Positions 19,047 to 27,354 are shown, counted from the first letter of the stretch. The stretch is 28,450 bases of DNA from Thermotogota bacterium (GCA_039679545.1 JBDKUT010000150.1:1-28450); one strand, 5' to 3'. Notes: generated by a model from the sequence alone, not told the origin. Translations and numbers: made by a program.

Positions 19047-19877
19047 CTAGTGCGAACTAATGTCGTGCGCGGTGACGTCGGGATGGCGGTAGCGGTAGTC
19101 TGAGCTGGCGAGCGGCCCGTGGATGGCGTTCGCGGGACACCAGTTGAAACAGGCGAGGCAGTTCTCGCAGCGGTTCTGCCAGATCGGCTTCTTGTTCACG
19201 ATCTCGATATTGCCGACAGGGCAGACCCGGGCGCACGTCCCGCACCCGTTGCACTTCGCGTCGACCGTGAACGAGCTTCCGCAGAGCGGCATGAGCTGCT
19301 CGACCGTGAGCCCCGAGGGGGAGGGAGTGCTCGAGGCTTTCTCCAGGGCCAGAGACGTCATGTGCCGGATCCATCCCTGGAACGGCGTCATGATTGCCTG
19401 GATGACCACGTTGGAGTAGAAGACCCCCGTCCTTCTTGCCTCGACCGATCGGACGATGAAGTCGATCCTCTTCAGTGCCTGCCTGTAGGCCAGCGACTTG
19501 ATCTCCCAGGGCTTGTGGAACGCGTTCTGCGGCATGTGGATCCCGAAGCCCGCCGACAGCCCTGCTCCGCGCGATCTCAGGATGCCGTCCAGCGTCTTGA
19601 ACGAGTCGCCGGCCCCTCCTCCGTAGTTGCAGACGGCGAAGATGTACTTCCCTTCCGTGTTGCCGAGCTTCTCCGCGAAGCGCCGGACGATGTTGGGAGC
19701 GTCAGCGTAGTAGACCGGGAATGTGATGCCTATCACATTCGCGTCTGGCTCGATCGTCTCCCTGTCGGCCACCGAGGCGATCGGGATCAGCTCGCCGTGC
19801 AGCCGCCCGGCGATGCCCCTTGCGACGATCAATGAGTTCCCCGTTCCGGAGAAGTAGTACACCTCGGCCTTTCTCAT
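19047..19877 (-). CDS. EFR1-family protein: flavodoxin-like domain + 2x[4Fe-4S] ferredoxin (276 aa)
   Basis: YYFSGTGNS, FPVY, MPQN, CNGCGTCARVCP and CENCLACFNWCP; GGAGG RBS. Confidence 0.92.
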   Translation of the reverse strand: MRKAEVYYFSGTGNSLIVARGIAGRLHGELIPIASVADRETIEPDANVIGITFPVYYADAPNIVRRFAEKLGNTEGKYIFAVCNYGGGAGDSFKTLDGILRSRGAGLSAGFGIHMPQNAFHKPWEIKSLAYRQALKRIDFIVRSVEARRTGVFYSNVVIQAIMTPFQGWIRHMTSLALEKASSTPSPSGLTVEQLMPLCGSSFTVDAKCNGCGTCARVCPVGNIEIVNKKPIWQNRCENCLACFNWCPANAIHGPLASSDYRYRHPDVTAHDISSH

Positions 19878-19981
19878 GACTATCCTCCGCAAGTTCAAAG
19901 TCACAGACTACAGCCCTGGCGGGAGATACGGTATCCGTCTCCGGGAACCTTCGGCTTGTCACTACTGGCAGGCTTCAACCA

Positions 19982-20025
19982 CCTGCCTCCGGTCCTTGAC
20001 AGCCCTGCCTCCGGTCCTTGACAGC
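19982..20025. repeat. Perfect 22-bp tandem duplication CCTGCCTCCGGTCCTTGACAGC
   Basis: Identical copies at 19982-20003 and 20004-20025. Confidence 0.95.
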
Positions 20026-20161
20026 AAGGAGCAGAACCCGACCCCATCCCCCCTGATGCAGCACGGGTCCACCGCATATCTGATCGACTCCAAGGTGGGC
20101 GCCTACTCCGACGCTCTGGTATGCTATCATTATCTCACCCAGACACAGAGGAGGGATTACC

Positions 20162-20317
20162 ATGGAAGACAAAGCACAGAACGAAGTAGCGCCGCAGTCC
20201 TCAGAATTGAAATGCGCACACTGTGGCACCAAGCTGCCGCAGGTCACGTATAGGTGCACGAAGTGCGGCTACAGGGTCTGCAAGAAATGCGGCGAAGGCA
20301 ACTGCCCGAAGCCGTGA
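20162..20317 (+). CDS. Cys-rich zinc-finger-like microprotein (51 aa), absent from the ORF track
   Basis: GAGGAGG RBS; upstream TGcTATCAT extended -10; three CxxC motifs plus a terminal CP; double stop TGATAG. Confidence 0.75.
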   Translation: MEDKAQNEVAPQSSELKCAHCGTKLPQVTYRCTKCGYRVCKKCGEGNCPKP

Positions 20318-20382
20318 TAGGAGGAGAGGGCGGGATCTTCACGACATGAAGCAGGATTCGACCTCACAGCCCTGAAGACAGC

Positions 20383-20754
20383 TCAGCCTATGTAGGCAAA
20401 CGACTGGGGTGCACGGAATCCGTCAAACACCTCTTCCGGATCCACGGGCTCAGCGTACTTCGTATAGCTATCGACCTTCAGAGCGTAGCCGTTTGTACAC
20501 CCGGCGAAGTAGTGGGAAAACTGCTCATACGTGATACCGCCCTCTGCAGCAGTTGCTAGCCACAGCTTATCCGGATGGTCGGACAGGACTTCGCCCAGCT
20601 GGAACTCACCCACGAGCTTCCTCATCGGGCTTGAGGCGTACAGGACGACGCAGGTCACTTCTTGTCTAAATACTCGCCGTCTGTACTCAAACCGTTTCTC
20701 ACCATCGAGAATCCTGGCCGCATGCTCAGGCCTAATTGACAACAAGACTCGCAT
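20383..20754 (-). CDS. ASCH (PUA-like) domain protein (123 aa)
   Basis: LLSIRPEHAARILDGEKRFEYRR (GxKxxExR), YASSP..LVGEF and APQSFAY. Confidence 0.9.
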   Translation of the reverse strand: MRVLLSIRPEHAARILDGEKRFEYRRRVFRQEVTCVVLYASSPMRKLVGEFQLGEVLSDHPDKLWLATAAEGGITYEQFSHYFAGCTNGYALKVDSYTKYAEPVDPEEVFDGFRAPQSFAYIG

Positions 20755-21787
20755 CGACTCCTCCGAGTTTCAGGATCGCCTCTAGCTGTTGGTCGGTCAA
20801 CTCAAGGAACCCTGGGTAGGCGTCCCTGGCGACACCCACATCCTCGACAAGCGTTTTTCGGATCAGCCGCTTGGTAAGGGCTGCATTGTAGAGCATTCTG
20901 ACTACGACCATCTCCTGCTGTCTCACAGCGTCCCACATGCTGAGGAGCTCCCCGCGGTCGAAAACGCTTGCCTTCTCGGAGTACTCGAGGAACTCATCTC
21001 GGCTGACAAACGACCTCTTGAACCGGATGTCCTCTGCAGTGCAGATCGAGGTCACGACCGACCGATACTCCGCTGGTCCTCTGCTGTCTGAGGTTCGATA
21101 GATCACGAGGAGGTCACCTGGGCTCACCTCGCTCGCGTCCATGAAGCAGATATAGCACTTGTCAATACTGTTCGTATGTGCTACGTCTGCCACGACGTCA
21201 TAGCTCTCACTGGCCAGGATGGAGTCCGGGAACAGCTGCGTATGCCACTTCGGCTGGATGGGAAGAATGAACTTCCGGTTGCCAAGGATCCGGAAGCGTG
21301 GGTAGTCGAGTCGGGGAGAACCTGTTAGGGAACTGAGCGATTTCACGAGCACGACCTCAGTGCCGTTCGCCGAGGTCTTGGCTCCGTACTGAGTGAAGCC
21401 AAACTCTTGGAGTAGAGCAATCAGTGTGAAGTGCTTTGGGAAGACCGTGATGTAGAGCTCGGTGACCCCTTCGGAGATCGCGTGATCGAGTGCCTTCTTG
21501 ATGAAGCGTTGCCCGAGTCGCGACCCGTGCGCATCGATCTTCAGGGTGCCCACTTTCAGGCGGCGCGCGGCAGGCATCTGTGGCTCGACGTCGGTGACCG
21601 GCCCGCTCTCCAGCTTGAGGTACATGAAACCGAGCAGCGTGGCTTCGTCCTGCATGACGTATGCCTGCTCCTTGCCCTTCGTGCGGAACCAGTCAGCGAA
21701 CTCCAGGTAGTCCCGCTTGAGGCTATCGAAGAATGCACTCTTGATATCCACCTCCGCAAACCGCACGCGTTCAAGCCTTGCCGTCAT
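20732..21787 (-). CDS. GNAT acetyltransferase fused to a PUA/EVE-like domain (351 aa)
   Basis: FFDSLKRDY.EF..WF, LKVGTLKIDAHGSRLGQRF, LYITVFPKH..LI.LL.EFGF; C-terminal PI.P.WHT.LFPD, NSI.K.YI and PGDLLVIYRT; GGAGGGAGAAGG RBS. Confidence 0.85.
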   Translation of the reverse strand: MTARLERVRFAEVDIKSAFFDSLKRDYLEFADWFRTKGKEQAYVMQDEATLLGFMYLKLESGPVTDVEPQMPAARRLKVGTLKIDAHGSRLGQRFIKKALDHAISEGVTELYITVFPKHFTLIALLQEFGFTQYGAKTSANGTEVVLVKSLSSLTGSPRLDYPRFRILGNRKFILPIQPKWHTQLFPDSILASESYDVVADVAHTNSIDKCYICFMDASEVSPGDLLVIYRTSDSRGPAEYRSVVTSICTAEDIRFKRSFVSRDEFLEYSEKASVFDRGELLSMWDAVRQQEMVVVRMLYNAALTKRLIRKTLVEDVGVARDAYPGFLELTDQQLEAILKLGGVDASLVVN

Positions 21788-22592
21788 CGCCTTCTCCCTC
21801 CTTGATTCCTTGTGGATAGAGCGGACTCCGGAACTGATTCACGGCCAACCATTCCAGATACCTGTCGATTGACGGTGCCCCCATGTCGATCGCGTACTCA
21901 TCACCGAAGAGTGCCAGGATGAAGAATAGCGAGTTCGCGTCGGTGAGCACGAATGTCCACTCGTGCAGTACCTGATACTGAGGCTGACCAGGCACGCCGA
22001 AGATTCGGTGCGGGGGATACAACCTCCGCGAGTGATACGGCCACGTCTCTGGGCCACCGCGGCGTGCATAGACGCGCAGCGGGTCCAGTTCGCGCATGCG
22101 CGCCATCCCGGCAAGTTCACTGCTTACGGCGAGTAAGCGCTGAGCCAGCGCCTCAATTGCCGTCTTGGCGAGAAACCTGGACATCTCGCCCTCTTCTGGC
22201 CAGTCCACCTTGGGAAATACAAGCATTCCCCGTGGGCGGGAGCGGAGGGCCTCTACCCAGCGAGACTCATCCTTCTCCCGTAGCGCTAGCACGGAGAAGC
22301 CCCCGGACTTGAGATCGGGAGCGATCTGAACCGGGACCAGGCTCTCTCGGTGGATGGCCGTGATCCGCGGAGGTCTTCCTCGCTTGGTGGGAATGGCAAG
22401 TCCTACTACTCGCTCACGAACGTACAGCGACTCCACGAGAGGTTTCTCGACCTCTCGAGAGAAGTAGTTGTTGCATGTGTCGCATACCACTCCCGGAGGC
22501 AGGACGTGTTCGATATTGCCCAATGATTGCGGGATTACGTGTTCCGCAGAAACGCAGTCATCACTAGGGCACCTGCAGAAAACACATTCCAT
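21771..22592 (-). CDS. HNH endonuclease (HNH_5-like) with a C-terminal domain (273 aa)
   Basis: CVFC, EHVIPQSLGN and VCDTCNNYFS; likely start is ATG 22592, as the upstream part of the track ORF is antisense to another gene. Confidence 0.85.
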   Translation of the reverse strand: MECVFCRCPSDDCVSAEHVIPQSLGNIEHVLPPGVVCDTCNNYFSREVEKPLVESLYVRERVVGLAIPTKRGRPPRITAIHRESLVPVQIAPDLKSGGFSVLALREKDESRWVEALRSRPRGMLVFPKVDWPEEGEMSRFLAKTAIEALAQRLLAVSSELAGMARMRELDPLRVYARRGGPETWPYHSRRLYPPHRIFGVPGQPQYQVLHEWTFVLTDANSLFFILALFGDEYAIDMGAPSIDRYLEWLAVNQFRSPLYPQGIKEGEGDDGKA

Positions 22593-22883
22593 GGGTTCAG
22601 CGGATTCTTGCCTATGGCGACACTCGGAGTCAAGCGATGTTCGTCCACGGCCGCGATCTGCGGTTTGGGCGCGAGTGGTGTGGTCAGACGCTGGGTGGGG
22701 CTGTTTCTGTTCGGTTCCGACGGCGGGGGCATACCCTGTCACGCGAACGCAGCGGCTTGGTCGAGTGGCGCGGGCGCCGCTGGACTGCGGAAGGCTGCCA
22801 TGTCGCACGCACGCCATGTGCAGTACTTCGCCGAGGAACTCATCTCTTGCCGGGGAGTGGCGTTCCCCGTACGATCGCTCACG

Positions 22884-23669
22884 ATGGCCATCGAGTTCAC
22901 TTTCCGCATCACCAAGGACGAGATCCGCGTTCGGGACAAGGAGACGGGGTTTGACCGCGCGCTCGTGAACCGTGTGGGAGCCCACGACAAGCGGGGGATC
23001 ATCGTTTCCCTGGGTGAGCCGGAGGACAAGGCGAAGGCGCGTCTGGGCGCGTGGTACCTGGAGCACGCGAGCGAGGTTCGCTTCGCGACGCTCTTTGGCG
23101 CAGAGGGTCCGGATCTCCGCTACGAGATCCGATTGCTCGAGTACCTGACGCGGCAGCTCCATCGCCAGTCGCAGGAGAGCCGGCGGTTTGGGCACATGAC
23201 GGCGAAGTTCGCAAGCGCCTTCGACTACGTGCTCGAGATCCCGGGCTACGAGGCGTTCCCCGAAGAGCGTCGCCACGCGCTCGAGGAGAGCATTCAAGCG
23301 CACCTGCGACTTCGACGGCTTCTGATCAACGGGCGCGAGGTGCAGATCTCGAAGGCGCGGAGGACAACCGATCACTGGCTGCGGCGCCTCTTCGTGTGGG
23401 TGGTCCCCGTCGCGGCGACGATGGCCGGCTATGCGACGGTTCCAACGACGGTCCTCGAGAACCGTCTCTACCTCTTCCTCTATCTCCTAGCCATTGCACT
23501 TGCCTTCTACTACGGCGGCAAGGTCTTGTGGATGCTGTGCGCCCGTCGGCTCGTCCCGCCCACGTACCGCCTACGCATGCTCCAAGGCCTGCGCTATCGT
23601 CTGCCGCTGATTGACAAGTGGTTGGCGAAGGTCTTGTGGGGAGCGACCGAAACGAGCCCGCGTACCTAG
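22884..23669 (+). CDS. Hypothetical protein with two C-terminal TM helices (261 aa)
   Basis: TTGCCG-N17-TACGAT (22847-22875) lies 8 nt before ATG 22884; protein-like composition from MAIEF onward. Confidence 0.7.
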   Translation: MAIEFTFRITKDEIRVRDKETGFDRALVNRVGAHDKRGIIVSLGEPEDKAKARLGAWYLEHASEVRFATLFGAEGPDLRYEIRLLEYLTRQLHRQSQESRRFGHMTAKFASAFDYVLEIPGYEAFPEERRHALEESIQAHLRLRRLLINGREVQISKARRTTDHWLRRLFVWVVPVAATMAGYATVPTTVLENRLYLFLYLLAIALAFYYGGKVLWMLCARRLVPPTYRLRMLQGLRYRLPLIDKWLAKVLWGATETSPRT

Positions 23670-26430: not shown

Positions 26431-27354
26431 TGGGGTCAGGTCTTCACTTTCCGATCGCGTTCTGACGAGAGACTCGTACTGCAATGGTGCTGATTGTGGA
26501 TGGTCGCAAACCGATGAAGTCTGCAACCTCCCGCAGCGTGTACTCGTGGATGCGCGTGGCCGCATGGATCTGACGGTCTCGTGCCTCCTTGTCGCACACA
26601 GCTGCAAACAGCTCTGTCAGGCTCGGGCGAGCGGCAAGTCGCTCTCGTCTCGGAAGCTCTCGCGTTGTCTGGTAGTCCAAGAGCAACGGCTTGAGCTCTC
26701 CGACGAACTCCTCGCTGCCCAAGAGAACGCCGCCGTGCAACTCAGTCCATACGTCAACCCCTCGACCTTGCTTGACGAACTGACGGTACTGCGCCGACGC
26801 CCTACGACGATCACACTGGAGCTGCTCGAGAATCCAGCCGACAGTTAGGAAGTGTGGTACCTCTGCTAGACCCGCCGTTGCACGGTAGCTTGACCATGGC
26901 CAGTCCTTCGCCGAGCGGACCATCCGCGCACGCACAGGGTTCAAGACGACGTACCGTGCCAGCTCGAGCAGGTGGCTCTCCTTCTCAACCACGATCGCCT
27001 TGAACCGTCCCTGAAGGACATGCCCCGAGCGCATGTGCCGGCGATTGAACGCCTGCGTGTACACCCCGTTGAGGTGCCGCATCCCACGCGACAGATTCGC
27101 TTCGGGCGTCTCGATCAGCAGGTGGTAGTGATTCGACATCAAACAGTAGGCGTGGCAGAGCCAGCCGAAGCGCTCGACGGTGGCGCCAAGAACGCTGAGG
27201 AACAGCTCGCGGTCCGGGTCGACAAGGTAGATGTCTTGTCGAGCGTTGCCGCGGCTTGTGATGTGGTAGACAGCGCCTTCGTACTCCAGACGGAGAGGTC
27301 GTGCCATGGCGCCAGTCTACTCAGTTCGTGTCGGAAAGTGAAGATCTGACCCCA
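26431..27354. mobile_element. RAYT element bounded by 24-bp terminal inverted repeats (TIRtron-like)
   Basis: TGGGGTCAGGTCTTCACTTTCCGA (26431-26454) versus the reverse complement of 27331-27354, TGGGGTCAGATCTTCACTTTCCGA (23/24 identical). Confidence 0.85.
26444..27307 (-). CDS. REP-associated tyrosine transposase (RAYT, Y1 HUH) with C-terminal HTH (287 aa)
   Basis: MARPLR, YHITSRGN, YCLMSNHYHLL (HUH), QGRFKA, RYVVLNPVRA, WPWSSY; HTH YTLREVADFIGLRPSTIS. Confidence 0.93.
   Translation of the reverse strand: MARPLRLEYEGAVYHITSRGNARQDIYLVDPDRELFLSVLGATVERFGWLCHAYCLMSNHYHLLIETPEANLSRGMRHLNGVYTQAFNRRHMRSGHVLQGRFKAIVVEKESHLLELARYVVLNPVRARMVRSAKDWPWSSYRATAGLAEVPHFLTVGWILEQLQCDRRRASAQYRQFVKQGRGVDVWTELHGGVLLGSEEFVGELKPLLLDYQTTRELPRRERLAARPSLTELFAAVCDKEARDRQIHAATRIHEYTLREVADFIGLRPSTISTIAVRVSRQNAIGK

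Follow-up and report, generated by a model that had tools for sequence, protein, structure and literature searches.

A candidate accessory HNH nuclease encoded beside a GNAT-PUA/ASCH pair in a Thermotogota bacterium

Described counterparts of the GNAT-PUA/ASCH pair

GNAT-EVE proteins are found with or without a PIN domain and nearly always with an ASCH protein, and the PIN-less form occurs in prophages, according to the sections of PMC7641849 that treat this family; PIN-less operons are also recorded in the corresponding part of PMC5499597. The pair described here comes from a Thermotogota bacterium, in a stretch of 28,450 nucleotides analysed as a whole and called the window below (GCA_039679545.1 JBDKUT010000150.1:1-28450). 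It is built like the (PIN)-GNAT-EVE + ASCH operons in those sections (PIN_15/PIN_17 in PMC5499597), having likewise a GNAT with a C-terminal PUA-like fusion and a second PUA/ASCH gene, and differs from them in lacking AAA_17 and HTH and in lying outside any recognisable prophage. In the same sections of PMC7641849 an HNH domain appears only as an EVE-HNH fusion and never as a neighbouring gene, whereas the HNH protein of the window has a gene of its own. The pair matches both profiles of the PADLOC candidate system PDC-M11 over their full length and in adjacent genes, while the HNH protein matches no PADLOC model. M11 is not mentioned in the main text of the preprint that is the source of PDC-M11 (Payne, 10.1101/2024.01.29.577857), taken apart from its supplements. 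Judged from these sequence matches, the pair is already known, as candidate PDC-M11 and as the PIN-less GNAT-EVE/ASCH operons that Bell 2020 and Matelska 2017 describe. The original prediction, made from the window alone, is supported in expecting a defence context; treating the PIN-less form as unusual is not supported, since this form is found in the cited parts of PMC7641849 and PMC5499597 and has a PADLOC model. The novelty that it proposed to check against PADLOC stands for the HNH protein and falls for the GNAT-PUA and ASCH proteins.

Homologues of the pair in Escherichia phage PhiR47_2 (GenBank PV340567.1) are labelled 'GevT toxin' and 'GevA antitoxin' by the depositor. They are 41% (353 columns) and 39% identical to the GNAT-PUA and ASCH proteins over the full length, and have in common with them the gene order, the 23-nt overlap and the absence of a PIN. 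In this lambdoid phage the two genes lie directly after cI and without an HNH gene (L215:3980-5408), whereas the window has one. In lambda this is the place of rexAB. The GevT/GevA pair is present at 80% query coverage or more in 310 of 5426 E. coli genomes. A literature search, beyond which most subscription papers lay, found neither a paper for the GevT/GevA name nor experimental work on the pair, nor any reference to a link with this HNH. What is new is the HNH family, which stands outside the catalogues and is found repeatedly with such modules and less often with other predicted base-modifying modules.

The three genes, their products and their insertion site

Three co-oriented ORFs were confirmed on the minus strand of the window in the order HNH, GNAT-PUA and ASCH, overlapping by 17 nt (HNH/GNAT-PUA) and 23 nt (GNAT-PUA/ASCH), as originally predicted (Table 1). 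Where ribosome-binding sites had been claimed within the preceding genes, Shine-Dalgarno-like GGAGG was located ahead of both the GNAT-PUA and the ASCH start; inspection of the sequence upstream of the HNH ATG found no Shine-Dalgarno-like motif. The predicted promoter TTGACT..AAGAAT is present at 22633-22604, but its score is at chance level (one such site found versus 0.9 expected in shuffles), and we rejected it as evidence. The three genes are probably made from one transcript. Their GC content is below that of the flanks, as had been noticed, at 57.6% versus 65.0% for the genome, and is equalled by 0.5% of 983 equal-sized genome windows.

Table 1. Features of the cassette, in window coordinates.
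Feature	Position	Strand	Length or basis
HNH nuclease gene, Zn-binding (predicted)	22592-21771	-	273 aa
GNAT-PUA(EVE-like) gene, PDC-M11A / GevT homologue	21787-20732	-	351 aa
GNAT domain of GNAT-PUA gene	about 21787-21329	-	fold searches
PUA-like domain of GNAT-PUA gene	about 21283-20750	-	fold searches
ASCH gene, PDC-M11B / GevA homologue	20754-20383	-	123 aa
GEKRFEYR octapeptide of ASCH gene (K20, E23, R25)	about 20703-20680	-	sequence
Shine-Dalgarno-like GGAGG for GNAT-PUA gene, within HNH gene	21797..21801	-	sequence
Shine-Dalgarno-like GGAGGAG for ASCH gene, within GNAT-PUA gene	20758..20764	-	sequence
Promoter-like TTGACT-N18-AAGAAT	22604..22633	-	9/12 consensus matches; chance level
Lineage-specific low-GC block with cassette	19860..22883	.	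congener comparison and GC

The flanks of the low-GC block (19060-19859 and 22884-23669) have matches in the congeners G001, G003 and G004, where 0.7-2.4 kb of unrelated DNA lies between the same flanks in place of the cassette; read from its translation, the small gene at this site appears to be GNAT-like. Among 184 genomes of the phylum, the GNAT-PUA gene occurs in two and the HNH gene in this genome only. In the other GNAT-PUA genome (G550, completeness 85%) the pair is 70% identical at the DNA level and has a different upstream gene of 495 aa that matches RNase_H_2 and, weakly, Cas4. As congeners have other DNA at the site and the genes are rare in the phylum, the block is lineage-specific, a recent insertion where congeners have another gene. 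A repeat search found no repeats bounding the cassette, and Rfam gave no match. Close to the left edge of the block is an exact 22-nt tandem duplication (19982-20025), and within the block a 51-aa zinc-ribbon ORF (20162-20317, plus strand; Pfam E 2.6e-6) is convergent with the ASCH gene. The plus-strand gene at 22884-23669 (~261 aa), divergent from HNH and common to the congeners, has no Pfam or PHROG match, and a gene with a Y1/IS200-like transposase domain lies at 26444-27307 on the minus strand.

The original domain calls were supported, with the PUA-like domain placed at the level of the PUA superfamily. The HNH gene product is a predicted DNA-cutting enzyme with an intact His-Me motif: Pfam HNH_5 matches residues 3-55 (E 4.9e-9), and the acid-His dyad, CxxC pairs and metal-binding Asn that are hallmarks of HNH (His-Me) enzymes are present (C3xxC6, E17-H18, C37-x-x-C40-N41, E49), followed by a region of ~210 aa. 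In an alignment of 148 sequences, E17 and H18 are each conserved in 132/133, C37 and C40 in 145/145 and N41 in 144/145. The C-terminal region has invariant residues of its own (R139, K143, E147, R177, W184, R189 and E211). The AlphaFold model has a pLDDT of 94.7. Fold searches, all with the full model, gave no match in the PDB at E 0.001, a best Z of only 3.8 among 48,161 chains and an HNH as the top match among viral structures (E 3.1e-3); with searches of this kind, an absence of matches is no proof of a new fold. The profile had one chance match only among PDB sequences, ESM Atlas matches were solely to HNH-named clusters, and no PHROG family was matched. The family has 353 representatives with an E of 1e-30 or lower, and no homologue was found in 50,697 phage records. 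Predicted complexes of the HNH protein with GNAT-PUA and ASCH scored 0.08 and 0.17 (mark 0.32). A homing endonuclease was considered and rejected, because the neighbours would be too diverse for one common target. At L033:2-1609 and L169:3998-5586 the family is present as two tandem genes, of which one is close and the other distant.

The GNAT-PUA protein matches PDC-M11A (PDLC04419) with an E of 8.6e-129 over residues 4-351. It has no N-terminal PIN, its GNAT fold starting from residue 1 (residues 1-153 of the model: Z 15.6, rmsd 2.5, 145 aligned; Pfam E 1.9e-4), and residues 169-346 form a PUA/ASCH-like fold (5guq, ZmASCH: Z 13.2, rmsd 3.4, 143 aligned). For the latter domain a Pfam EVE match is absent, an ASCH comes nearest among the structures listed, and one homologue is annotated as EVE. 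The canonical acetyl-CoA motif A (Q/RxxGxG/A) is also absent; in its place is H87-G-S-R-L-G92, conserved across 118 homologues, with R or K at position 90, the canonical central Gly, in 113/118. Since motif A is non-canonical, though residues around the cofactor loop are strongly conserved (K78, G80, T81, K83, H87, G92, R94, K97 and K98), acetyl transfer is something that we infer. The top fold matches of the GNAT are protein and small-molecule N-acetyltransferases. Related PIN-fused GNATs are described as missing motif A and probably inactive in the relevant part of PMC5499597, while passages of PMC7641849 relay a proposal that GNATs of the GNAT-EVE type acetylate a DNA base and suggest aminoacyl-tRNA as a target. 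A scan of the genome collection with the single GNAT protein gave one weak locus only.

The ASCH protein matches PDC-M11B (PDLC04425; E 9.6e-45), its gene adjoining the M11A match. The octapeptide G18-E-K-R-F-E-Y-R25 fits GxKxxExR, and K20, E23 and R25 are invariant (48/48). Its closest solved relative is ZmASCH (PDB 5GUQ, E 1e-8), with which it has the GKER motif in common and whose Tyr47 and Ser128 align with Y39 and S118; it is not YqfB-type, as Glu replaces Thr24. In the portion of 10.64898/2026.02.27.708502 that reports the assays, all 19 ASCH proteins assayed, including ZmASCH, remove tRNA ac4C in vitro, with the Lys and Glu essential; ZmASCH had no activity on free ac4C and left tRNA ac4C in cells undiminished. 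In that portion the erasers were assayed without a partner GNAT, whereas the ASCH protein here has one. ZmASCH is a weak ssRNA nuclease by the account of its activity in PMC5615036.

Linkage of the HNH family to GNAT-PUA/ASCH modules

A metagenome survey returned at least 443 HNH relatives; the best 80 were retained, and linkage was counted with GNAT-PUA/ASCH profiles built independently of the surveyed loci. Among these best 80 of at least 443, 20 lie no more than 2.5 kb from a GNAT-PUA or ASCH gene (18/68 clusters at 80% identity), spread over many lineages, so the predicted synteny of HNH with the pair does recur elsewhere; profiles built from the same loci gave 22-23/80. Requiring 2.5 kb of flank on each side left 18 of the best 80, with a module in 8. 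With 2 kb on both sides (n=21, the long-flank loci), 12 have no module within 2.5 kb. Of those 12, one carries a module further off, at 2.8 kb; DarT1-NADAR, DUF488 or QatC-like genes are present at four, and the remaining seven are without any of these. DUF488/PDC-M19 neighbours were seen at L009, L011, L034, L065, L075 and L179, QatC-like genes at L050 and L070, and DarT1-NADAR was flanked by the HNH family once (L040). Counted together, GNAT/ASCH, DUF488, DarT1-NADAR or QatC-like modules lie within 3 kb in 14/21 long-flank loci and are absent in 7/21. No further neighbour family approaches the frequency of GNAT-PUA/ASCH.

In the 20 linked loci the HNH gene follows the module in nine, precedes it in two, and is convergent in seven and divergent in two, thus pointing opposite to the module in 9/20. 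The gap is -26 to 167 nt in 11/12 co-oriented loci with a measured gap and 248 nt in the twelfth. The order HNH-GNAT was seen again in L046, L058 and L222; the exact trio of HNH and PIN-less GNAT followed by ASCH occurs, among the loci surveyed, in the window only. Linked partners include PIN-GNAT-EVE, a ~700-aa GNAT-PIN protein, ASCH-GNAT and HTH-ASCH, and most of the HNH-linked modules retain the PIN. The HNH protein therefore does not replace the PIN, and this part of the original prediction was rejected. The ~700-aa GNAT-PIN-...-PUA-like protein is paired with ASCH at L017:301-2403, L022:1360-3552, L204:3448-5529 and L222:4381-6438; PDC-M11A profiles match it weakly, and it has a canonical motif A in L017.

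In the plasmid collection, HNH was found in eight records, and a module was adjacent in three of the six examined. Five HNH matches were found in 401 genomes of another phylum, one of them a close match directly following GNAT-PIN and ASCH and the other four weak, with no module within 1.5 kb. Among 15 viral HNH loci, two almost identical ones have a split HNH ahead of the long GNAT, and one follows a DUF488 pair. In an HNH tree of 84 rows (without rows <200 aa or the four weak matches), linked loci are interspersed among long-flank unlinked ones, with at least 8 changes and no clustering (61/500 shuffles were as low). The nearest HNH relatives of the window (L007-L009), on short contigs, have no GNAT/ASCH neighbour, and the HNH gene at L023 stands amid housekeeping genes.

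Viewed from the module, the HNH gene is found in 0/80 viral GNAT-PUA loci (in 42 clusters, with flanks of at most 4 kb), in 0/11 of the genomes with a GNAT-PUA gene among the 401, and in 2 of 34 plasmid records. By these counts the linkage of the HNH family to GNAT-PUA/ASCH modules, though recurrent, is one-way. An obligate three-part system is not supported, in view of the 0/80 viral modules, the 12/21 long-flank HNH loci without a module within 2.5 kb and the opposite orientation in 9/20. The linkage nevertheless appears enriched over background, judging from the rarity of GNAT-PUA (11/401 and 2/184 genomes, with the long GNAT-PIN form outside these counts), and we consider it reasonably likely to be functional.

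Several unannotated neighbours were noted in passing. A family of 300-385 aa, whose scanned members have no Pfam, PADLOC or PHROG match (L031:2861-3784, L046:7048-8202, L078:5822-6775, L115:2829-3965 and L159:2903-3964), recurs with GNAT-PUA/ASCH modules in 8 of the best 80 HNH loci and in 10/80 viral loci, often between cI-like and integrase-like genes, and is a second candidate accessory. A ~260-aa family is found at the corresponding place, upstream of GNAT-PUA, in other prophage loci (L134:3216-3998, L135:3210-3992, L141:3210-3989 and L155:3211-3990). A cluster of HTH-IrrE peptidase, QatC-like and PIN-like genes lies beside HNH at L050:1852-4855 and L070:6883-10122.

Candidate mechanism and rival explanations

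We favour, with the balance about level, a two-layer anti-phage cassette in which a GevT/GevA-type (PDC-M11) toxin-antitoxin pair is joined by an optional accessory HNH nuclease. The PUA domain would dock the GNAT on nucleic acid, and the GNAT would acetylate a base, most plausibly cytosine N4, in RNA or DNA. The ASCH protein may strip the acetyl group via its K20/E23 dyad, restraining the toxin; whether it reverses the acetylation in this way we rate as evenly poised. DarTG offers an analogy, in which the base-modifying toxin DarT is reversed by the enzyme antitoxin DarG; such systems resemble the writer/eraser logic predicted here, although folds and chemistry differ and there is no homology. 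With a base acetylated and the mark erased by ASCH, the pair would act as a toxin-antitoxin, as the GenBank label implies, and that it is one seems very probable. Phage infection would tip the balance between toxin and antitoxin, leading to cell arrest. The HNH protein would be a self-sufficient DNA nuclease that does not need the pair, adding protection against the same invaders; selection, not a role as subunit, would keep it beside the modules. The original reading of GNAT as writer and ASCH as eraser is thus supported at the level of predicted activities, and of its proposed modes of action toxin-antitoxin is favoured, the pair being so labelled in GenBank, while restriction-modification loses ground with the HNH often lacking a module within 2.5 kb (12/21 long-flank loci).

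The chemistry assigned to the pair could be wrong whichever role the HNH protein has. It is rather doubtful, though worth weighing, that the GNAT is catalytically degenerate or takes protein or aminoacyl-tRNA as its substrate, with ASCH a binding antitoxin or RNase instead of a deacetylase; this concerns the pair only and is compatible with the other alternatives. The non-canonical motif A and the protein and small-molecule N-acetyltransferases among the top folds point that way, as do the aminoacyl-tRNA targets and the ZmASCH RNase activity in the cited passages of PMC7641849 and PMC5615036, whereas the strong conservation around the cofactor loop and the invariant K/E/R motif of ASCH argue against it. 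A passenger role for the HNH protein is unlikely: here an independent defence nuclease would have only its variable islands in common with PDC-M11, and the window operon would be a chance juxtaposition. Its absence from viral modules (0/80) and module-bearing genomes (0/11), its presence in only 2/34 plasmid records, the other 495-aa gene upstream of the orthologous pair in G550 and the opposite orientation in 9/20 linked loci would all suit such a passenger; yet GNAT-PUA is rare (11/401; 2/184) while a module stands beside ~40% of long-flank HNH loci, and no other neighbour family comes close in frequency.

Tighter coupling is also conceivable. The HNH protein could be a mark-dependent nuclease that cuts DNA bearing a bulky base adduct written by the enzyme next door (an acetyl group by GNAT-PUA, or ADP-ribose by DarT or DUF488), so that a reversible mark ends in breaks. 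The diversity of its neighbours, with GNAT/ASCH or DUF488/PDC-M19, DarT1-NADAR and QatC-like modules within 3 kb in 14/21 long-flank loci, would fit, and so would a C-terminal region with invariant residues (R139 to E211) and no known fold, and an HNH that is apparently harmless without a protective partner. No reader domain was found in it, however, 7/21 long-flank loci have no such module, one nuclease for chemically unlike marks finds no support here, and the ASCH evidence favours RNA at least as much as DNA; we regard this reading as improbable. Equally improbable is its fuller form, in which the HNH protein founds a new-fold family of nucleases that read adducts, and the cassette is a writer-eraser-cutter immunity working via DNA acetylation. 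Least credible, and very unlikely indeed, is an acetylation-based restriction-modification in which the GNAT shields host DNA and the HNH protein cuts unacetylated DNA. With an eraser encoded alongside the GNAT the protection would be undone, the GNAT homologue is labelled a toxin in GenBank, 12/21 long-flank HNH loci have no module within 2.5 kb, and L023 has its HNH gene amid housekeeping genes; set against this are the tight coupling of the genes in the window, the HNH-GNAT order in L046, L058 and L222, and the proposal of DNA-base acetylation by these GNATs, as relayed in PMC7641849.

Returning to the two-layer reading, even as a stand-alone enzyme the HNH protein would be an anti-phage nuclease candidate that PADLOC lacks and for which the structure searches gave no solved relative. 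If it does need the GNAT mark, DNA-base acetylation would be an immune signal with a nuclease reading it. GNAT-EVE/ASCH modules are widespread, and a nuclease recurrently beside them offers a direct way into the question whether they act on DNA or RNA.
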